DNA of 35,232 bases, from IMG/VR virus record IMGVR_UViG_3300005077_000062, positions 1 through 35,232 of that record. One strand, 5' to 3'. The translations under genes and the position numbers were made by a program. Below the pieces are notes generated by a model. That model searched no databases and was not told the origin of the DNA. It saw only the letters and a program-made list of their open reading frames with translations. Source of the stretch: a virus (taxonomy: Duplodnaviria; Caudoviricetes). This document shows positions 2,955 through 34,635 of this stretch, piece by piece. Positions within the stretch are counted from its first letter, which is position 1, and the number at the start of each line of letters is the position of its first letter.

Positions 2955-3968
2955 ATGGGCCACATGCACCTCGTCAATCGGTCGTTCCTGCTCGCCAAGC
3001 GTGAGACGACCTACGGCACCGACAGCAGCCCTGCCGCCGCAGACCTGATCGAGGTCTACGACTTGCAGATGAAGCCGTCGCTGGAGTCGGTCGTGCGAAC
3101 GACCAACAAGGCGAACATCAGTCCCGAGAAGCCTCTCATCGGGAAGCGCAGCAGCGGCGTGTCCTTCAAGGTTCCGCTGTGGGCACAGCCTTCCGGGGCC
3201 ATCTTCGCCGCGCCGCGCTGGACGCGGCTGCTCAAGGCGTGCGGCGTCCTCGGCACCGTGGGCACCAACGTCATCGCCTGCGCCCCGAGTAGCCTGACGC
3301 CGCCGCAGACGAACGGCCCGGACTCCCTGACCATGCTGGTGCTCGACAGTCCGCAGAGCACGAACCTCGGCACGGTGACGAAGCTGCTGGGCTGCGTGGG
3401 CACCGCGAAGTTCGTCCTCGTGAACGGGACGCTCCCCTACATCGAGTTCGAGTTCAGCGGGAGCTACGTCACGCCCGTGGCGTACAACAGCAGCACCCAC
3501 GTCTACTCGGGCAGTGAGGAGACGCTGACGGAGGTTCCGTGGTTGGCGACCCTGCTCACCGTCCGCAAGAACGTGGACTCCACCCCGGTCAACCTCTCCT
3601 CCAGCCTCGCTGCGATCCAGAGCATCGAACTCGATCTCGGCATGACGGTGGCGATGCGCGAGAGTTGTATCACGGCCAGCGGCGTCCTCGGCTTCTTCCA
3701 CTCCAGCCGTGCGCCGAAGATGACCATCAATCCCGAGCGTGATACACCGGGGACCATCGACTGGTGGACGCTGATGACTGCGGGCACGGTCATCGACGTG
3801 AAGGCTACCTTCGGCAGCGGCAACCGCGGCTACGTCTATGGGAAGTATGGGGTCATCACGGCGATCACTCCCGGCGACCGCAACGGCGTGGCCGTGGATC
3901 AGGTCGAGGTCAGCCTCTTCGGCGACGACAACGAGTTCGAGGTCTACACTACCTACGCCGCATCGTAG
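2955..3968 (+). CDS. Major tail (tube) protein
   Basis: 337 aa; N-terminal LLAKRETTYGTD and PRWTRLLKACG motifs typical of tail tube proteins; precedes chaperone and tape measure genes. Confidence 0.8.
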   Translation: MGHMHLVNRSFLLAKRETTYGTDSSPAAADLIEVYDLQMKPSLESVVRTTNKANISPEKPLIGKRSSGVSFKVPLWAQPSGAIFAAPRWTRLLKACGVLGTVGTNVIACAPSSLTPPQTNGPDSLTMLVLDSPQSTNLGTVTKLLGCVGTAKFVLVNGTLPYIEFEFSGSYVTPVAYNSSTHVYSGSEETLTEVPWLATLLTVRKNVDSTPVNLSSSLAAIQSIELDLGMTVAMRESCITASGVLGFFHSSRAPKMTINPERDTPGTIDWWTLMTAGTVIDVKATFGSGNRGYVYGKYGVITAITPGDRNGVAVDQVEVSLFGDDNEFEVYTTYAAS

Positions 3969-4785: not shown

Positions 4786-7625
4786 TGGCTGCGGAAGCCG
4801 GTGCCCGTAAGATTCAGATCGTCCTCGGTCTCGATGACAAGGCCGCAGCGGCGGCGTGGCAGCGGCAGCAGGAACACCTCAAGAAGCTCCACTCCGTTGC
4901 CAACTGGACCTTCGCGGCGATGGGCGCAGCGATGGCTGGCGTGGTCGCCACGGCCTACAAGCTCGGCAGCGCCTACGAACTCCAGATGGCTCGCACAGCA
5001 GGAAACATCAAGGCGACCGCTGCCGAGTTCGACCTGCTCAACGCCGCTGCGAAGAAGGCTGGGCGTGAGACAGTCTTCGGCAGCACGGACGCCGCCCGCG
5101 CCCTCTACAAGCTCACCAGCAGCGGCCTCAATGCGAAGGAGGCCGTTGAGGCTCTCACACCCGCCATCGTTCTCGCCAGCAGCGAGATGATCGACCTCGA
5201 GCAGGCCAGCGGATGGGTGGTCAACACGCTCGGGCAGTTCCAACTCGGCACGAGCCAAGCCATGCGGGCCGTCAACGTGCTGGGCGCAGCGATCACGCTC
5301 GGAAACCAAGACGCGAACGACATGGAAGAGGCGATGAAGTACGCAGGCAGTTCCGCAGCGATCCTCGGAGTATCGCTGGAGGAGACGGCTGCGATGACGG
5401 ACGTGTTCGCCGCCATGGGCATCAAGGGAAGCATGGCAGGCACGAGCATGGGTCAGGTCTTCGCCCAACTGCACTCGCGCACGAAGGACATGTGGCCGTA
5501 CCTCGAAGGCGTGAACGTGCGGACGCAAGGCATGGCAGGCGCGTTGGACAAGATGAAGGAGAACGGTCTCACCGCCGAGAAGGCTCTCGAACTGCTGGGG
5601 CGCAGGGGCGGGCCCGCGCTGGCTGTCATGCTGCGGACAGGCAGCGATGTGCTACGCGAGTTCACGGAGAAGCTGACGGACACGACGTTCGCCGAAGACA
5701 AGATGCGTTACAGCTTCGACAACCTTGCCGGCGACATCATGAAGAACAAAAACGCCTTCAAGGGCATCTTCGTCTCGCTCTACGATGCGGCGAAGCCTGC
5801 GCTCAGGGATGGCGTGCAGATGTTGACCAAAGCCTTCCGCGACTTCGCCAACGAGATCGAGAAGCGGAAGGGAGAGGTCCGCGACTTCGTGAAGACGGCG
5901 CTCAACGGGATCATCGACTTCGGCACCTTTATCGTTAGGAACGGGGACAAGATCAGGAACGGCCTGATGATCATCGTGGCAGGTCTCGCCGCCCTCAAGG
6001 CTGTGAAGATCGCCACGGAGATCATGGCGATTGCGAGTGCGATCAAGCTCTTCCTGCTCATGAATCCCGAGATCGCCGTCATCGCTGCCTTGGCTGCTGG
6101 TCTCACGCAGCTCGGGTTCGCCGTCTCGTCGTACTTCTCGAAGACCAAGGACGCTCCGAAGGAACTCGACGCAGAGGGTCAGGCTTTCCGCAAGCTCGCG
6201 AAGGACATCGAGGACACGCAGAAGGCCATTGATGCCGCGCCTCATGGAGCCGAGCGCGGCGGGATGCTCATGCGGATGAAGGAACTCAAGGCCGCGATGC
6301 ACAGCGTCGTCGTTGGTGAGACATCCGCCACGCAGGCCATTGAGAACCTTGCCGCCGCTGAGAGGCAGGCCGCGCAGGAGACCGCCGACAGGCTGGCAGA
6401 ACAAGTGCGTGAGCGCAATCGCATCCTCGAGGAGGAAGAGGGCGAGCGCATCGCGAAGCAGCGTGAGGCGCAGGAGCGTAGGCTCGAGCTGCTGAAGCAG
6501 GGTCTCACCGAGGAGGAAGCGTGGTACTCGGAGTGGAAGACCTCGGTGCAGAAGAGCGAACTCGACCGTGACCTCGAAGCCGCGAGAGAGAAGGGAGACG
6601 CGATTCGTGACGCGCACCTTCAGCAGTACGAGTTGGAGAAGCTGGACAAGATCAAGTTCAACGACGAACTCTACGAGCTTGAATCCTACTCGTGGCAGCA
6701 GCGGTCAGCGGACAGAGCCTTCTACTACAACGCGTGGATGAATCAGGAGCACTTCTTCCTCGACCAGATGGTGAACGCTTGGCAGTCCGCAGGGAGTGCG
6801 TTGATTGCTGGTGAGACAAGCGGGCGCAAGATTCTCAAGTCGATCAAGCAGGCCGCGCTGAACGAGGTGCTGGGCGTTGTGACACGCTACCTCGCGACCT
6901 CGCTGAGGGTGTGGATGGCAAACCGATTCGCCGAGACGCAGGTCACGAAGATCGCTGAGGCGCAGAAGACGCTGGCGACCGTGAAGGGCACCGCCGCTCG
7001 TGTTGCTGCCCGCACCGCTGACACCGTTGCCAGCACGATCCTCAAGGCCAAGCAGACGGGAGAGATGGCCGCAGCAGTCACGGCGTACTACGCCCGCAGC
7101 GGCCCGCTGGGAATCCCTCTCGCGGCTGCGACCATCGCGGCCTACATCGGAGAGATCAAGTCGGCGCAGGTGGCCGGTACCTTCGCCGAGGGCGGGCGCA
7201 TTCGTGGCCCGGGAAGTGACAAGAGCGACAACCTTCTCATCAAGGCCAGCCCCGATGAGTTCATCATCAACGCCGCTGCCGCTCGCAGCATCGGCTACGA
7301 AGTGCTGGAGCAGGCGAACCGCAGGAGAAGGCTTCCCGGCTACCAGAATGGCGGCGTCGTGATGGACGGGGAGTTCGGTGTGCCACGAACCAACCTCTTC
7401 GATGGCGGGCTTGGAAGGGCCGTGCGGTGGATGAACGCGCCGTGGCAGGCGATCCAAGGGATGTTCCGCCCGCCCACGCCAGAGGGGAGAACGCTTGCGT
7501 TCAACATGGACATCCGGCTCGGGCCGAGCGACATCGAGCGCCGGATTCGCCAATACTTCACTCGTGAAGAAGGCCGCGACTTCTTCCTCGAACTGCTCGA
7601 AGAGTCCAAACTGAGGACAGTCTGA
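4785..7625 (+). CDS. Tape measure protein (TP901/PhageMin_Tail-type core)
   Basis: About 946 aa, Ala-rich helical; GIKGSMAGTSM core motif; hydrophobic segment; C-terminal FAEGGRIRGPGSDKSD...EFIINAAA motif. Confidence 0.92.
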   Translation: MAAEAGARKIQIVLGLDDKAAAAAWQRQQEHLKKLHSVANWTFAAMGAAMAGVVATAYKLGSAYELQMARTAGNIKATAAEFDLLNAAAKKAGRETVFGSTDAARALYKLTSSGLNAKEAVEALTPAIVLASSEMIDLEQASGWVVNTLGQFQLGTSQAMRAVNVLGAAITLGNQDANDMEEAMKYAGSSAAILGVSLEETAAMTDVFAAMGIKGSMAGTSMGQVFAQLHSRTKDMWPYLEGVNVRTQGMAGALDKMKENGLTAEKALELLGRRGGPALAVMLRTGSDVLREFTEKLTDTTFAEDKMRYSFDNLAGDIMKNKNAFKGIFVSLYDAAKPALRDGVQMLTKAFRDFANEIEKRKGEVRDFVKTALNGIIDFGTFIVRNGDKIRNGLMIIVAGLAALKAVKIATEIMAIASAIKLFLLMNPEIAVIAALAAGLTQLGFAVSSYFSKTKDAPKELDAEGQAFRKLAKDIEDTQKAIDAAPHGAERGGMLMRMKELKAAMHSVVVGETSATQAIENLAAAERQAAQETADRLAEQVRERNRILEEEEGERIAKQREAQERRLELLKQGLTEEEAWYSEWKTSVQKSELDRDLEAAREKGDAIRDAHLQQYELEKLDKIKFNDELYELESYSWQQRSADRAFYYNAWMNQEHFFLDQMVNAWQSAGSALIAGETSGRKILKSIKQAALNEVLGVVTRYLATSLRVWMANRFAETQVTKIAEAQKTLATVKGTAARVAARTADTVASTILKAKQTGEMAAAVTAYYARSGPLGIPLAAATIAAYIGEIKSAQVAGTFAEGGRIRGPGSDKSDNLLIKASPDEFIINAAAARSIGYEVLEQANRRRRLPGYQNGGVVMDGEFGVPRTNLFDGGLGRAVRWMNAPWQAIQGMFRPPTPEGRTLAFNMDIRLGPSDIERRIRQYFTREEGRDFFLELLEESKLRTV

Positions 7626-13980: not shown

Positions 13981-14009
13981 AAAACCCGCTGGAAACGGCG
14001 GGTTTTTTT
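13981..14009 (+). terminator. Intrinsic terminator ending the late operon (possibly bidirectional)
   Basis: AAAA-CCCGCTG-GAAA-CGGCGGG-TTTTTTT. Confidence 0.8.
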
Positions 14010-14076: not shown

Positions 14077-14110
14077 TTCGACTTGATTAGATCAACCCAC
14101 TCACTACTTT
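14077..14110 (+). promoter_or_regulatory. Early promoter P1 with overlapping palindromic operator
   Basis: TTGATT-16-TACTTT; TTGAT-TAG-ATCAA palindrome over the -35; shares TCACTAC(T/A)TT and downstream TGTTCT with P2. Confidence 0.65.
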
Positions 14111-14151
14111 GTGGCCGTGTTCTTTCACATCGTGAGTGTTTTGATGATCGA

Positions 14152-14496
14152 GCGCCAGCTTTCTCATTGAGACGCCCACGAAGCCGAGAGCGAGGCGAAG
14201 GCCGACGACACTACTCCGCGAGGAGCAAGCGACAAGCCACTCAATCTCGAGCGAGTCCGCGACAACCGGAAACGGGAAGACCAGCAGCGGGCGCAACTGT
14301 TCCTTGACATAGCGTGTCGGCAAGTAGAGAGACGGGAAACAAGAGACACCGTTGAACGAACACCGAGGCTGGTAGATCGCTTCCTTGTGTAACACGCCCA
14401 GCAGGAGCCGCCACGTCGTGAGACGTTGCGCCCGCAGTCGAGAGCGGGTGGGCATTGCGGGTCACAAGCTGCCCACAACGGACAGCAGGCACCGCA
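14152..14496 (+). ncRNA. Putative structured 5' leader RNA of the first early operon
   Basis: No credible ORF; nested stems GCGCC-A-GCT/AGC-G-GGCGC and ATTGAG/CTCAAT; GNRA hairpins at 14214-14225, 14266-14275 and 14413-14426. Confidence 0.5.
14298..14309 (+). promoter_or_regulatory. boxA-like antitermination element
   Basis: TGTTCCTTGACA versus rrn boxA TGCTCTTTAACA (9/12 identical), downstream of a promoter in a long leader. Confidence 0.45.
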
Positions 14497-14508
14497 GAGG
14501 AGACACAG

Positions 14509-14616
14509 ATGAAGACGACCAAGACGCAGCCGAAGACGCAGCCCAAGAGGGTTCGCCGTGACATCATCGACCTGCTTCGTGAGAACGAGGCGAGCGGTTG
14601 CGGGGTGGCACGATGA
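14509..14616 (+). CDS. Small early peptide (35 aa), absent from the ORF track
   Basis: GAGGAG RBS; MKTTKTQPKTQPKRVRRDIIDLLRENEASGCGVAR; ATGA overlap with the next ORF. Confidence 0.6.
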   Translation: MKTTKTQPKTQPKRVRRDIIDLLRENEASGCGVAR

Positions 14617-14813
14617 AGGCGACAGTAGAGGCAATGATCCTCGCCCAGGCGCGGATCGGCATCATCCCCGAGGTCACAACGAGCAACCTCAACGCCTTCG
14701 AGAAAGCCTGTCGTCGCTTCGGCGGCGGGCACTTCCACGAGATTGACAGCGACGGCGGGTGGTGGACGTGGGAGTCCACACAGCGTGTCACGAGAGTTCT
14801 GGTTCGAGAGTAG
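14613..14813 (+). CDS. Hypothetical early protein (66 aa)
   Basis: ATGA-coupled start; GC3-rich codons. Confidence 0.65.
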   Translation: MKATVEAMILAQARIGIIPEVTTSNLNAFEKACRRFGGGHFHEIDSDGGWWTWESTQRVTRVLVRE

Positions 14814-14936
14814 CCTGAGAGCGGTAACCAAGCCGCCCGCCCCGGTTCGAGATCGGGGCAGGCATTCCCACGCAAAGGTCGACAGCCACCAAGAAGGTGG
14901 CGGGCACGGAGCGGGGAGCAACACAAGGAGCGACTG

Positions 14937-15701
14937 ATGAAGACCAACAAGACCACCAGCACGGCCACCACCAAGGCGACCGAGACCAAGGCGACCAAGG
15001 CCGACACGAAGGCCGCTGCCACGGTGAAGCTCACCAAGGAAGAGCGTCGTGCCGCCGCCTACGCCAAGGCGAAGGCGAAGCGAGCCGCCATGACGGACGA
15101 GGAGCGCAAGGAGCGCAAGGCGATGGGTCGCCAGATGGCGAGCAAGCGCCTGTCCAAGGGCTGGGTAGAGATCGGCAAGGAGAAGCGGGCGCGGCGGGAG
15201 CGTGGCGACGTCCTCGAGTTGACGGGCAGCGCCAAGGGCGGGAAGATCGCCGTGACCATCCGCCACGACGCCGAGTCCGACTCCTTCGGACTCAACGTCA
15301 CCGGCCTCGCCGTCTGCGGAATCCCCTGCGGTCTCAGCTTGGCTGCCGCCAAGGCGCTCGCCAAGCGGGTCGCCATGACCGACATTGATTGGGACAAGGC
15401 GACCGAGTCCGCGTCCGAGTCCGTCAAGACGACCGACGGCAAGCCCGCCGTCCGCGTGTTCGAGTACGTCCGCGGCGGTGAGACGTGGCGGATGCACTTC
15501 AACGGCGACACCGAGCGGGCCCAAGAGTTGACGGTTTACACCGACACCGACCCGGAGACGTACTACGGCACCTTCTGCCAGCCCGTCTTCCACGGCGGCG
15601 TGAAGGCCCTCACGAAGTCCGTCGCCGACATGATCGAGTCCAACCTGCTCTGCTACTTGATCGGTTCGCGGCAGATGGAGCGTGAGACGTTCGGCGAGTA
15701 A
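14937..15701 (+). CDS. Early hypothetical protein with Lys/Ala/Thr-rich basic N-terminus
   Basis: 254 aa; AAGGAG RBS; strong codon bias; TKAT repeats. Confidence 0.8.
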   Translation: MKTNKTTSTATTKATETKATKADTKAAATVKLTKEERRAAAYAKAKAKRAAMTDEERKERKAMGRQMASKRLSKGWVEIGKEKRARRERGDVLELTGSAKGGKIAVTIRHDAESDSFGLNVTGLAVCGIPCGLSLAAAKALAKRVAMTDIDWDKATESASESVKTTDGKPAVRVFEYVRGGETWRMHFNGDTERAQELTVYTDTDPETYYGTFCQPVFHGGVKALTKSVADMIESNLLCYLIGSRQMERETFGE

Positions 15702-15742
15702 CACGAAGGGAAGCGATCTACCAACACGCTATGTCACACACC

Positions 15743-15774
15743 GAGGCCCCGCCAGCAACGGCGGGGCCTTTTTT
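15743..15774 (+). terminator. Intrinsic terminator of the first early operon
   Basis: AGGCCCCGCC-AGCAAC-GGCGGGGCCT followed by a T-run. Confidence 0.85.
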
Positions 15775-15809
15775 GTGGTCGGTCGGCGAAGAAGATAGAT
15801 CGTCTCGCA

Positions 15810-15840
15810 ACTTGATCTAATCAAGTCGAATCACTACATT
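15810..15840 (+). promoter_or_regulatory. Early promoter P2 with palindromic operator
   Basis: TTGATC-17-TACATT; ACTTGAT-CTA-ATCAAGT palindrome; 15812-15830 is the exact reverse complement of 14077-14095. Confidence 0.7.
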
Positions 15841-15919
15841 CGGGAGATGTTCTGGGACTGCGGTTGTATCACGCAAGGGAGCGTGGACGGCACGTTGTCC
15901 ACAACACAAGGAGAGACCG

Positions 15920-17152
15920 ATGGAACGCACCTACGAGCCGGGAGAGCGGGCGTATCACCACAGCGCCGAGACCTACGAGAACAAGCTGGCGGCGGCGGCT
16001 CCCGTGGTGAAGGAGAAGCTGGACAACATGGTGGGGCGGGCCCGCGCCGAGAGCGCAGCCGTGGTGGAGAAGCTGCTGCACGAGGCGGAAGTCCGGCGCG
16101 ACTTCCTGCTGCCGGGAGAGGAGTTGGATTGGGGCTGGGAGGATGGCAACGTGGTCGTGACACACGACCGCATCGCCGCCGCCACGCAGCGCCCGCACTT
16201 GATCGCCACCGATTGGGCGCGAGGTCAACTTTGGCAGCGGCTCCGTGTTCCCGCCGCGTTCATGGACGGCCTCGTCGCTGAGGCCCGTGAGACGTTCGAC
16301 GACGGCCAGCCGAAGCCCGTCGCCGTGCTGGCCCGTGGCACGATGCACGATCTGCTCGACAACCTCAAGTATCGGTGGGACGACAAGCGAGTCCTGCTGC
16401 GCGAGGTCGATGGCGCGGTGCGGGGTCTGCTCTCCGACTCCTACCAGCCCGTGGATCAATCGGCGCTCGTCAACGGCTTCGTCAGCGCCTGCGAAGAGAT
16501 CGCCGCACGTGACGCGGTGGAAGTGCTGCCGCTGTCCGGCAGCTACATCACCGATAAAGCCTACGGCCTGCGGGCGCTGCGCGGTGAGATCATCGAGCCG
16601 CTGCCCAACGAGCCGATGGTGCTGGGCATTCAACTCAGTTCGAGCGAGTACGGCTGCGGGTCCACCGAGGTGCGTCTCACGTTGACGCGGATGTGGTGCA
16701 CCAACACGGCCATCGGCGAGAGCGTTCTCCGCAAGGTTCACCTCGACGCGGGACTGCGGGAGTCCAGCGGTGGCCTCATTGAGTTCAGCGAGCGCACTCT
16801 GCGGCTGAACTCGGCGGCGGTGGTGAGCGGCATGAAGGACAGCATCGCCAGCGTGTTGTGTGCCGCTGGCCGCGACCGCGTGATGAAGCACATCCGCGAA
16901 GCCGCCGAGACGAAGGTGGACGCCAAGTCGCTGGCCGAGGGCGCGGCGCGGCGCGGCGTTCTCCGCAAGAGCGACGTGGAGCGTGTCGTGGAGATCGTCC
17001 GCAACGAGGATCGCTTCGACGTGCTGCCCAACACCACTAATCGGGAGTCGCGGCTCCGCTACGCCAACGCTCTGTCGTGGCTGGCCCAGCAGAAGCCCGC
17101 CGACGAGCGGCTGGCGCTGGAGGCCGAGAGCGGTCGCGTGTTGGTCGGGTGA
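15920..17152 (+). CDS. DUF932-like protein
   Basis: 410 aa; RGLLSDSY and GIQLSSSEYGCGS...RMWCTN...LRKVH motifs recalled for the DUF932 family. Confidence 0.7.
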   Translation: MERTYEPGERAYHHSAETYENKLAAAAPVVKEKLDNMVGRARAESAAVVEKLLHEAEVRRDFLLPGEELDWGWEDGNVVVTHDRIAAATQRPHLIATDWARGQLWQRLRVPAAFMDGLVAEARETFDDGQPKPVAVLARGTMHDLLDNLKYRWDDKRVLLREVDGAVRGLLSDSYQPVDQSALVNGFVSACEEIAARDAVEVLPLSGSYITDKAYGLRALRGEIIEPLPNEPMVLGIQLSSSEYGCGSTEVRLTLTRMWCTNTAIGESVLRKVHLDAGLRESSGGLIEFSERTLRLNSAAVVSGMKDSIASVLCAAGRDRVMKHIREAAETKVDAKSLAEGAARRGVLRKSDVERVVEIVRNEDRFDVLPNTTNRESRLRYANALSWLAQQKPADERLALEAESGRVLVG

Positions 17153-17173
17153 TGTGAGGTCGTGATACAAAGT

Positions 17174-17213
17174 AGCCCCGGCGGTTTGGGCTTCCACCCA
17201 TGCCCGCCGGGGC
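17174..17213 (+). other. Strong intergenic hairpin (processing site or terminator without U-tract)
   Basis: 10-bp stem GCCCCGGCGG / CCGCCGGGGC with inner TGGG/CCCA. Confidence 0.55.
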
Positions 17214-17238
17214 CGACAACCTGTGCAGGAGGTTCGAC

Positions 17239-17535
17239 ATGAACTTGGCACTTCGACAGCAGAGATGGTACTCCCGCGCCGATGTGCGGGCGAAGATCGA
17301 GAGCGCAGTCAACGCCCGCGAGGCAGCGGATGCCCTGTGGATCGCATCGTCTCACCGCGACCTCGAGCGTGTGGATCACGCCAACGGCCTCACGGTCGAC
17401 GGCGTGGATGCCATCATCGAGAGAGAGGCCCGCATCCACTATCAACGGGTGGCGCAGCGTCCCGCGCCCGCGTGTCTCACCATCGGCTGGCTATTCAGCC
17501 ACCACGACAACGGAGCGATCCCATGCGAAAGTTGA
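17239..17535 (+). CDS. Hypothetical protein
   Basis: AGGAGG RBS before ATG 17239. Confidence 0.7.
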   Translation: MNLALRQQRWYSRADVRAKIESAVNAREAADALWIASSHRDLERVDHANGLTVDGVDAIIEREARIHYQRVAQRPAPACLTIGWLFSHHDNGAIPCES

Positions 17536-17993
17536 CACCCATCACCATGAACGCCATGAGCGAGAGCTTCTACGACAAAGCCTTTCGCGGCGTGTCCATT
17601 CCCGCTCGCCTGAAAGCCGTGGCCGTTCGCATCTGTGACACCTACGGCATTCGCGGCGACGCTGACCCGCTCTACATCTGCAACGTCGTGGCCTACGAGA
17701 TGGCGGTCGGCGACGGGGAGGGTCTCTTCTGGGAGGAGGCTGGCCGTCGCTGGCGCGTGGATCGCATCGGCAACGCTTGGTGCGTGGTGGACACGGCGAC
17801 CAACGGGGTTGTGTCACGCCACGAAGTCACGGCAGAGTTCAGCGTGAGACAAGCGATGCAGGCGGCGATGGCGGAAGCCATGCGCCTCGACGACGTGTGG
17901 ATCACCACGTGGCTGGCTCGGCTCGCAGCCGAGCGTGGCGCGGTCGGTGTCGGCAGGGATCACATCTTCGCCAGCAGAGGAGACGGACGATGA
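17523..17993 (+). CDS. Hypothetical protein
   Basis: GGAG RBS before ATG 17523; ATGA-coupled to the next ORF. Confidence 0.7.
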   Translation: MRKLTPITMNAMSESFYDKAFRGVSIPARLKAVAVRICDTYGIRGDADPLYICNVVAYEMAVGDGEGLFWEEAGRRWRVDRIGNAWCVVDTATNGVVSRHEVTAEFSVRQAMQAAMAEAMRLDDVWITTWLARLAAERGAVGVGRDHIFASRGDGR

Positions 17994-18679: not shown

Positions 18680-18708
18680 TTGGTGATTAGACTTGATTTT
18701 ATTATCTT
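18680..18708 (+). promoter_or_regulatory. Putative promoter P3 with operator half-site
   Basis: AT-rich island TTGGTG-17-TATCTT containing GACTTGATT (same half-site as P1/P2), upstream of the RHH gene. Confidence 0.5.
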
Positions 18709-18747: not shown

Positions 18748-18978
18748 ATGCGAAAGGTCGCCGCCGAAGATGAGCGGGTGCGTCCCGGCCCGCGTCGGAA
18801 AGCCGTGAAACTCAGCGAGAAGGTGATGCTGTGTCTCACGCCGTCGGCTTTGCTTCGCGTGGAGCGAGCCGCAACCGTGCAGGGCAAGTCCATCTCGGAG
18901 TTCTGCCGAGATGCCGCAACATCCCGAGCCGACAAGGTGTTGGCTGGAATGACAACCAAAGCAGGAGGGAACGACTGA
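18748..18978 (+). CDS. Ribbon-helix-helix DNA-binding protein (DUF1778-like)
   Basis: AAAGGAG RBS; KVMLCLT (strand) followed by LLRVERAATVQGKSISEFCRDAA (helix-turn-helix of RHH). Confidence 0.7.
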   Translation: MRKVAAEDERVRPGPRRKAVKLSEKVMLCLTPSALLRVERAATVQGKSISEFCRDAATSRADKVLAGMTTKAGGND

Positions 18979-21233: not shown

Positions 21234-22022
21234 GTGGGTTTCAACATGGTGCCAGACACCACGCTCGACCAACTGACCCTCCTCAAGCCGAAGGAGCGAC
21301 ACGTCGTCCTCTCCTGCTGGTGCCTGCCGGATCGTCGCTGGGGCGGTCTCTTCACCGTGTCGGCGAAGCGGCTGGCGTACTACACGGGTCTCTCCGTCCG
21401 CGAGGTTGAGAGCGCTCTCACAGGTGACACGCCAGCGAGAAAGCTCATCGAGTGGGACGCCGCGCTCGATCTGCTGTGGGTTCCCGGCATCGCTGCCGCC
21501 GACATGGCTCGTTGCAGCAACGAGAAACAACTCAAGGGTCTCGTCTCCAACATCAAGCAGGCACCGGCGTGTCCGCTGCGTGAGACAGCGGTGGTCTATC
21601 TCATGAGTCTATCCCATCCCCTATCGAATGCCCTACGGATAGCCCTATCGAATGGGCTATCTGGTGACCTATCGAAGACCCTACCGATAGGGTTCGTAGA
21701 CGTAGACGTAGACGTAGACGTAGAGGGCGGGTGCGCGGCAACCGACGAGGAGTGTGCCGCTGCGGTCGAGCGTGTCACGGCGTGGACACGCATTCTCAAG
21801 GGAACACGTCACGAGGTGACACAGCAGCAGATCGACAACTACGGCGACGACTTCATCCGCGCAGTTGCCGCCGTGTCACAAGAAGACATCGAGCAGATGG
21901 CGCGGGCGGTTCGTGCGAGCAAGTGGCTCAGGGAGGACGCTGGAGTCGTGAGCTTCCCGTGGGCGATCAAGAACCGAGAGCGGCTTCTCCGAGGGGAGTG
22001 GTCGCCCGACGCGAAGAGGTGA
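21234..22022 (+). CDS. Replication initiator (lambda O-like organisation)
   Basis: GGAGG RBS before GTG 21234; N-terminal wHTH-like AKRLAYYTGLSVREVESAL; internal DNA repeats and VDVDVDVDVE linker; C-terminal SFPWAIKNRERLLRGEW. Confidence 0.7.
   Translation: MGFNMVPDTTLDQLTLLKPKERHVVLSCWCLPDRRWGGLFTVSAKRLAYYTGLSVREVESALTGDTPARKLIEWDAALDLLWVPGIAAADMARCSNEKQLKGLVSNIKQAPACPLRETAVVYLMSLSHPLSNALRIALSNGLSGDLSKTLPIGFVDVDVDVDVEGGCAATDEECAAAVERVTAWTRILKGTRHEVTQQQIDNYGDDFIRAVAAVSQEDIEQMARAVRASKWLREDAGVVSFPWAIKNRERLLRGEWSPDAKR
21596..21725. repeat. Iteron-like array (probable replication origin) inside the initiator gene
   Basis: CTA(T/C)(C/G) units at 21609, 21621, 21633, 21645, 21657, 21669 and 21681 (12-bp period, plus 21596), then (GTAGAC)x4 at 21696-21719. 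Confidence 0.7.
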
Positions 22023-34025: not shown

Positions 34026-34486
34026 TGGCACTCTCTCGAAGGCTCATCATCTCGCTCCTCGTGAGCGAACTCGATAGCGACCTTGACAGCAGGTCCGACT
34101 TGCTTGCTGCCGACCTGACCCGCTTGGCTTCGAGCGGGATGTCGGCTGCGGCTGTGACACGCCTCATGCAGGCTCGCATCGAAGAGATGATCAGCAGCAT
34201 GGCGCACGCTGCGACAACGCAGATTCGTGAGAGCATCAACAGCATGGTCTTCACGAGCTATTGGGAGAAGGTCGCGCAGGAGAGCGATTACTTCCTGTGG
34301 GAGATGGAGCCGAGCGCGAAGCATTGCGATGACTGCGTGGACCGCTCTGGCAAGGTCGGCACTGCAGCGGAGATGGGCAACGTAGGCTTTCCCGGCAGCG
34401 GCGCAACAAAGTGCCGACAGAACTGCCGATGCGCTATCATTCCCATCACGCGAGAGGATTACGAGAACGGCACGAAGATCAGTTAG
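34025..34486 (+). CDS. Minor head protein (Mu gpF/SPP1 gp7-like C-terminal domain)
   Basis: HCDDC...PGSGATKCRQNCRC motif. Confidence 0.7.
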   Translation: MALSRRLIISLLVSELDSDLDSRSDLLAADLTRLASSGMSAAAVTRLMQARIEEMISSMAHAATTQIRESINSMVFTSYWEKVAQESDYFLWEMEPSAKHCDDCVDRSGKVGTAAEMGNVGFPGSGATKCRQNCRCAIIPITREDYENGTKIS

Positions 34487-34557
34487 CGGGTTGGCCCAGA
34501 GGTACGGCACCGGTCTCATACGCCGGATGGACGCGGGTTCGACTCCCGCACCCGCTA
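34485..34557 (+). tRNA. tRNA-Met (CAT), no encoded CCA
   Basis: Acceptor AGCGGGT/ACCCGCT plus A73; D arm GCC/GGC; anticodon arm CCGGT-CTCATAC-GCCGG; T arm GCGGG-TTCGACT-CCCGC. Confidence 0.88.
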
Positions 34558-34635
34558 TGCGATGCCGACTGCGATAGTGTCGGGCGGGCTGGTCCGCATA
34601 ACCTGTGGCCGCAGGGCCGAAATCTGGAGAGACCC

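Follow-up and report, generated by a model that had tools for sequence, protein, structure and literature searches.

A split leader-trailer RNA duplex that starts at a boxA-like site encloses a phage operon and may gate translation of its third gene

Introduction

In the phage genome analyzed here, the end of an operon is complementary to two separate segments of its own leader, the outer of which overlaps a boxA-like element, and this arrangement raises the question of why a protein-coding message should be laid out like the precursor of a ribosomal RNA. The window, i.e., the whole stretch of 35,232 nucleotides that was analyzed, is a circular phage contig of 35,133 bp with a 99-nt terminal overlap and 63% GC, in which genes for the capsid, tail tube, tape measure, holin, endolysin, SSB, and terminase were annotated. 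An initial annotation had proposed an rRNA-mimicking, end-paired transcript, possibly circularized or translationally gated, and had missed another boxA-like site, located at 14118, as well as a covarying RNA fold with several domains (in the leader and in the gap that separates ORF2 from ORF3) and the ribosome-binding region of ORF3 as a pairing partner of the inner leader arm.

The transcription unit

The unit, all of whose features lie on the + strand, is 1.66 kb long and starts directly after the lysis terminator, an intrinsic-terminator-like hairpin (13981..14006) located 3' of the holin and endolysin genes, which forms its upstream boundary. A likely sigma70-type early promoter (TTGATT, 16 nt, TACTTT; 14083..14110) was recognized by eye, below the threshold of the scan, and would place the transcription start near 14117. 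The unit ends at a second intrinsic-terminator-like hairpin followed by a T run (15743..15776), the lower 9 bp of which are the same in a related phage, and the terminator scan returned no + strand terminator between the promoter-like site and 15743, which agrees with the earlier description of a single operon. Its early status is presumed from its position, and the next gene downstream is DUF932-like.

The palindrome TTGAT-N3-ATCAA (14083-14095) overlaps the -35 element of this promoter, and is found again at 15812-15824, so that it overlaps the -35 of both early promoters. A weaker copy (18693-18705) precedes an ORF (18748-18978) for a 76-aa TacA1-like protein, which we take to be of the ribbon-helix-helix type and which is likely to be a repressor. 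The first promoter of the relative carries another palindrome.

A leader-trailer duplex split by a folded insert

The trailer strand (15708..15736) is complementary to both leader arms, and its positions 15709-15736 match, as an exact reverse complement, the segments 14305-14317 and 14370-14384 placed end to end, which bears out to the nucleotide the 28-bp split complementarity, the overlap of the outer arm with the boxA-like TGTTCCTTGACA, and the 52-nt insert between the arms that had been reported. The outer arm (14305..14317) pairs with 15724-15736 over 13 bp, with two compensatory changes in the relative and a predicted pair probability of 0.99. Within the inner arm (14370..14390), positions 14370-14385 pair with trailer positions 15708-15723, and positions 14377-14390 may pair alternatively with the ribosome-binding site of ORF3. 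The insert (14318..14369) is predicted to form a 3-bp stem, an AGTA/GAA internal loop that we take to be loop-E-like, a purine-rich loop, and a 5-bp hairpin with a 13-nt loop, with one compensatory and one G-U change between the two phages. The helix totals 28-29 bp, but it is split into 13 and 15/16 bp by a three-way junction.

Nine exact inverted repeats of at least 15 bp occur in the genome, so that a single 15-bp repeat is ordinary. The split arrangement of 28 bp was reached in none of 60 Markov-simulated genomes (best 19-25), the next best split arrangement in the window being 21-22, and in whole-transcript folding the probabilities of the long-range pairs were 0.96-0.99 for both phages. 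Two smaller features proposed earlier fared less well: the 10-nt repeat ACACCGAGGC is indeed present at 14360 and 15738, but it is not conserved in the relative (GCCGAAGC vs CACGAGGC) and a role for it was not supported, and the bulged extension of the inner helix to 14390/15701 is likewise not kept there.

Covariation in a related phage

One distinct relative was found (L001/G001), with 80% identity in the next protein and approximately 74% DNA identity over 15865-17953, and it keeps both the layout and the two long-range helices. Among the 29 long-range pairs, 23 are unchanged, four show compensatory changes of the kind predicted for an RNA-level 5'-3' pairing, one is a G-U change, and one, located at the helix junction, is broken; a combinatorial estimate for the four matched changes is ~8e-6. 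The 77 pairs of 17 local helices comprise 65 unchanged, eight compensatory, four G-U, and no broken pairs, counts which stem from two genomes only and which are favored by the choice of helices through folding of the same two sequences.

Given the four long-range and eight local compensatory changes, the duplex is very probably a selected RNA structure of the + strand and not a DNA scar. The competing proposal is that the arms are DNA-level inverted repeats, left by an inversion or insertion or serving as protein sites, and homogenized between copies, which would also be expected to yield covariation. Against this, however, the genes between the arms are oriented alike in both phages, a 52-nt hairpin interrupts one of the arms, both arms lie within one promoter-terminator unit, and of the six non-compensatory changes five are G-U pairs, which hold only on + strand RNA, so that a DNA-level origin appears highly improbable.

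The same comparison bears on the circularization that had been suggested. If the ends were to be ligated to give a circular or spliced RNA, the trailer would act as a splint across the 52-nt insert, in keeping with its perfect complementarity in the window to the two joined arms; on the other hand, the relative has a mismatch in place of the pair at the helix junction, the insert has a conserved fold of its own, Rfam recognized no ribozyme or intron, and the annotated genes include no RNA ligase. We consider ligation to be very improbable, and the suggestion of a circular product was not sustained.

Homologue scans of viral contigs returned two and then seven loci for a 410-aa gene and 55 for the terminase, and those with ORF3 and the capsid yielded no relatives. 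Terminase homologues with 38-55% identity are also present on contigs P0005-P0009. DNA-pattern searches gave 79 and 15 loci, one of them true, and another gave one locus; in metagenomes, two of 18 loci were true, both being the same phage as L001. RNA models retrieved nothing new in 86 sources and no match among 47 virus records, the latter run having no positive control, and blastn against phages and plasmids gave short chance matches only. A distant DUF932-bearing phage (L002) contains long GC-only repeat tracts (400-670, 3460-3820, and 6180-6262) that flank its early region.

The boxA-like sites and rrn leaders

The duplex begins at the 3' end of a boxA-like site (14298..14309, TGTTCCTTGACA), which reads TGTTCTTTCACA in the relative. 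In the window, TGTTCTTTCACA itself occurs at 14118..14129, where it is followed by a local hairpin (14130-14181) and where the relative has a version with three mismatches. These two sites are the only ones in the window that are one mismatch from the rrn element TGTTCTTTGACA, and both lie in this leader; considering both phages, three of the four copies are one mismatch from it and the fourth is three mismatches away, none being perfect. The available part of PMC13753749 gives UGCUCUUUAACA as the boxA consensus for E. coli and AUGAUCUUUGAAA as that for B. subtilis.

The boxA-like 12-mer differs by one base from the rrn boxA in two MAGs, one from the Bacteroidetes and one from the Verrucomicrobiae. 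In the 3.8-Mb Bacteroidetes MAG, TGTTCTTTGACAT occurs exactly twice, before the 16S and before the 23S gene, and ATAGTGTG pairs with the 16S trailer CACACTAT in the same manner as ATAGCGTG pairs with CACGCTAT in the phage, the boxA and the first stem bases being near-identical. A genome scan for boxA plus the first stem bases gave 120 loci, four of which were flagged by primer motifs; one is a confirmed 16S leader (that of the Bacteroidetes MAG), and rRNA linkage was not established for the other 119. The same pattern was present in two of 151 genomes of one phylum, one of these occurrences being not rRNA-linked. For the 23S gene, 29 loci were fetched and the 12 full-length, non-duplicate ones were examined, of which seven have a boxA-like 12-mer up to 260 nt upstream, one being exactly TGTTCTTTGACA. 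This exact copy belongs to the Verrucomicrobiae MAG, and there, as in others, leader-trailer pairing is predicted from the 3' end of boxA.

Given these matches in sequence and helix position to the rrn leaders of the Bacteroidetes and Verrucomicrobiae MAGs, the phage site probably works like an rrn boxA. Against this function, boxA 2 is predicted to be paired in most folds, with partners that are non-conserved and differ between the phages. Upstream of it, a 6-bp helix that encloses a GAAA-loop hairpin (14255..14292; one compensatory pair) occupies the position that boxB has in rrn leaders, and the order of GAAA hairpin and boxA resembles the boxB-boxA-boxC leader as presented in the accessible sections of PMC10250234, PMC8632103, and PMC13753749. 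In this layout, the long-range helix starts at the 3' end of boxA and closes ~1.4 kb later, so that the pre-rRNA-like architecture originally proposed is upheld by the rrn leaders compared here. Unlike an rrn operon, the phage unit encloses three ORFs and no rRNA, and it ends at an intrinsic terminator; its helix is interrupted by a folded insert, and its leader strand has a second partner, a ribosome-binding site. By membership, the unit belongs neither to the rrn operons nor to the lambda nut systems or the type I toxin loci. That it works like an rrn operon leader with an added switch is a reading which we advance tentatively, at slightly less than even chances.

The enclosed genes and RNA domains

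The inner arm is followed by a conserved leader domain (14396..14496), a multi-helix junction with a GTGA-loop hairpin and then a bulged hairpin just before the Shine-Dalgarno of ORF1. ORF1 (14509..14616; 35 aa) has a basic N-terminus and no family was found for it, and ORF2 (14613..14813; 66 aa), coupled to it by ATGA, has no counterpart in the relative by tblastn, an unrelated 64-aa ORF being present there instead. The intergenic element that follows (14813..14917) consists of a three-way junction with a hairpin, which we take to be T-loop-like, and a bulged stem-loop, with five compensatory pairs.

ORF3 (14937..15701; 254 aa) has Lys/Ala/Arg-rich N-terminal helices, which suggests that its product may bind nucleic acid. 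The search with this protein gave two proteins only, i.e., one homologue that is ~30% identical, and neither a family nor a fold was assigned: no fold match was present at E 0.001, nothing usable was found in the Atlas or PDB, and the AlphaFold pLDDT was 42.

Two side observations concern these domains. The last 21 nt of ORF1 (14596-14616) are the same in the relative even at synonymous positions. This stretch can pair with mid-element positions 14832-14844, a pairing that would leave the exchangeable ORF2 looped out and would compete with the three-way junction. In addition, an asymmetric internal loop, GTC-ACAA/GACA-GC opposite GC-A/G-GGC, occurs at 14461-14490 and 14878-14905 in both phages, in the stems before the Shine-Dalgarno sites of ORF1 and ORF3, and is possibly a protein-binding site.

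The non-coding blocks are 80-85% identical between the phages, whereas ORF2 has been exchanged for another ORF and ORF3 has 30% identity, and tertiary-type motifs are conserved (the AGTA/GAA loop, the T-loop-like hairpin, and the repeated GTC-NACA/ACAA-GC internal loop). Both features would be expected if the folded RNA itself (~500 nt in three pieces) were the product, as a scaffold, a decoy, or a protein-binding RNA, with the ORFs as loop cargo and with the long-range helix closing the fold as in ribosome assembly. However, every domain stands directly before a Shine-Dalgarno, as cis-regulators do, there is no Rfam match, and the sequence and RNA-model searches revealed no free-standing homologue, which leaves the RNA as product a rather improbable account.

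At the gathering score, Rfam recognized one tRNA only in the whole window and no rRNA, and the eight weak matches at E up to 10 include none in the leader or mid element, the exception in this region being a weak - strand match in ORF2. Presumed motif resemblances to a T-box, group I/II intron, RNase P, tmRNA, and cobalamin/FMN riboswitch were rejected, as these motifs are not conserved in order or the family was absent by Rfam.

The inner arm and the ribosome-binding site of ORF3

Listing the helices common to both phages revealed that the ribosome-binding region of ORF3 (RBS3; 14921..14933, ACACAAGGAGCGA) is a 13-bp complement, with one bulge, of 14377-14390 in the inner arm. The helix has predicted energies of -22.0 and -21.2 kcal/mol in the two phages, and it formed in six of six folds of transcripts that end 25-165 nt into ORF3, with an unpaired probability of the Shine-Dalgarno of at most 0.05 in all six. 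In the full-length RNA, the state in which the arm is paired with the trailer is 13.7 kcal/mol lower in both phages. RBS3 ranks second (window) and first (relative) for the arm among 103 candidate sites, and the top-ranked candidate of the window is not kept in the relative.

The leader contains an invariant block of 14 nt, with substitutions exactly at both ends of the arm/RBS3 pairing; the compensatory changes of the inner helix fall outside it, and TTGTGT is kept in the leader although the relative's trailer leaves part of it unpaired. RBS3 lies in a 15-nt identical block, the joint longest among 20 orthologous RBS regions (28 genes given). Both strands being identical in the two phages, the arm/RBS3 helix shows no covariation, and RBS3 may have been retained simply for its strength as an RBS, because CACAAGGAG-type sites are found before the capsid gene and before the next early gene as well. 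Genome-wide, pairing of equal or greater strength is available to the arm at three other sites in the window and at two in the relative. The release of RBS3 is also not clean in the relative, since the arm masks the site only by about half when the entire ORF3 is folded without the trailer, and since the predicted partner of the site in the full-length fold is a non-conserved coding segment. As a separate observation, the arm has another strong predicted partner in the next unit's 5' UTR, a conserved hairpin (CACGC-loop-GCGTG, 15870-15885) that ranks first in the window and fourth in the relative.

A completion gate and its alternatives

The pairing of the arm with RBS3 supplies a concrete mechanism for the earlier suggestion that the transcript is translationally gated. 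The best reading of the locus, which we hold tentatively and at somewhat below even odds, is a Nus-assisted, completion-gated translation of ORF3. In the nascent RNA, folding predicts that the inner leader arm would mask RBS3, ~540 nt downstream, until the trailer is made. By analogy with rrn biology (PMC10250234 and PMC8632103), host NusB/S10 may bind boxA and hold the leader near the polymerase, and the boxA-bound Nus factors may protect the untranslated stretch of ORF3 from Rho, a resistance that would be needed because of the 390-nt leader and the silenced 765-nt ORF. Once the RNA is finished, the trailer would displace RBS3 from the arm by strand exchange, with the outer 13 bp as an extra anchor, and the ORF3 protein would be made from finished transcripts only; a cut of the final helix by RNase III is possible in this scheme, and not required. 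The wider proposal, that the host rRNA transcription machinery is used as an mRNA quality-control gate through a boxA-tethered leader, trailer strand exchange, and completion-licensed translation that is deliberately uncoupled from transcription, is more tentative still, with perhaps one chance in three.

The main rival is a plain closure in the style of pre-rRNA, in which the duplex would serve antitermination, folding, protection, or RNase III processing, and the complement of the RBS would be incidental. Its layout is the same as that of rrn leaders, and the E. coli leader-trailer helices, of 25-40 bp, hold an RNase III site (PMC10250234, partial text); similarly, a 14-bp pairing that links the 5' with the 3' UTR modulates RNase Y cutting of hbs mRNA from B. 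subtilis (PMC5737220, partial text). The arm/RBS3 helix without covariation also fits. However, the longest unbroken helix of the phage is 15-16 bp, separated from the outer one by the folded insert, and a plain closure leaves the end-to-end match of the invariant leader block with the RBS pairing unexplained, for which reasons it seems somewhat unlikely. The hbs mRNA itself resembles the phage unit in its ~14-bp leader-trailer pairing and structured 5' UTR, but it differs in controlling RNase Y access and in being a single-gene mRNA, and the portion of PMC5737220 consulted names no boxA or RBS exchange.

Silencing of the hok/aapA type would have the opposite sense, in that the full-length, end-paired message would be inert and 3' trimming or cutting would activate a harmful early protein. 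Long-distance 5'-3' pairing and nascent Shine-Dalgarno masking define such systems (PMC6733600, as far as its available text goes), and the phage unit shares with hok and aapA3 both the masking, which is predicted here, and a 5'-3' rearrangement on completion. The predicted logic is nevertheless reversed: the trailer pairs with the leader arm that acts as anti-Shine-Dalgarno and not with the Shine-Dalgarno, so that RBS3 of the window is predicted to become accessible on completion, and simulated cuts, including within the inner helix, failed to re-mask RBS3 in eight of eight folds. Furthermore, ORF1 is basic and not a hydrophobic peptide, and the unit is polycistronic, with a boxA and a 254-aa target of soluble type. 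Silencing of this kind is accordingly a very unlikely account, and hok and aapA3 serve the completion gate as a precedent for masking followed by 5'-3' refolding, with the opposite outcome.

Lambda provides another precedent, in the Nus-linked translational repression of N across a 200-nt structured leader (PMC5725501, in part). Like the pL-nutL-N leader described there, the phage leader has an operator-overlapped early promoter, a boxA ~200 nt before the first gene (14309 to 14509), and extensive structure, and Nus-linked translational control is known from both lambda N and the boxA repression of E. coli suhB (PMC5725501; 10.1101/091223, both in part). In contrast with nutL-N, there is no N family match for ORF1-3 and the GAAA hairpin lies upstream of boxA; in contrast with both lambda and suhB, the long helix is a 5'-3' long-range one, and silencing is proposed to occur via base pairing.

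Under the plainer reading, the locus would still be a covariation-supported, protein-coding phage operon built like a pre-rRNA, and an uncatalogued multi-domain RNA fold. Bacterial translation normally begins on the growing message. If the completion gate is true, it would be a natural switch in which translation is on only once the 3' end exists, i.e., the mirror image of hok-type silencing, and it would put Nus factors to a new use outside rRNA. A further gain would be a small reporter for the question of whether boxA tethering helps to deliver the leader strand to the trailer (PMC10250234, PMC8632103, available parts). In the literature covered, which mostly excludes subscription journals, there was no description of a phage mRNA with a boxA and a leader-trailer helix, nor of an RBS freed by a 3' trailer, and a phage structured-RNA catalogue (PMC10690425) gave no match in the parts covered.

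Other features of the genome

The region 21609-21724, inside a gene after SSB, contains short direct repeats together with a tandem run of GTAGAC and is a possible replication origin. The one tRNA has a CAT anticodon (34484-34558), and the record of the relative is without a tRNA. Finally, GTGA[C/G/T]AC heptamers occur far more often than expected on both strands throughout the window (GTGACAC 54 vs 9.8 expected; GTGAGAC 40 vs 10.3; GTGATAC 20 vs 2.7). A host search based on GTGANAC-type enrichment found it absent in all 49 bacterial genomes tested. The relative is also enriched (GTGACAC, 95), and palindromic hexamers such as CGGCCG are depleted in the window.
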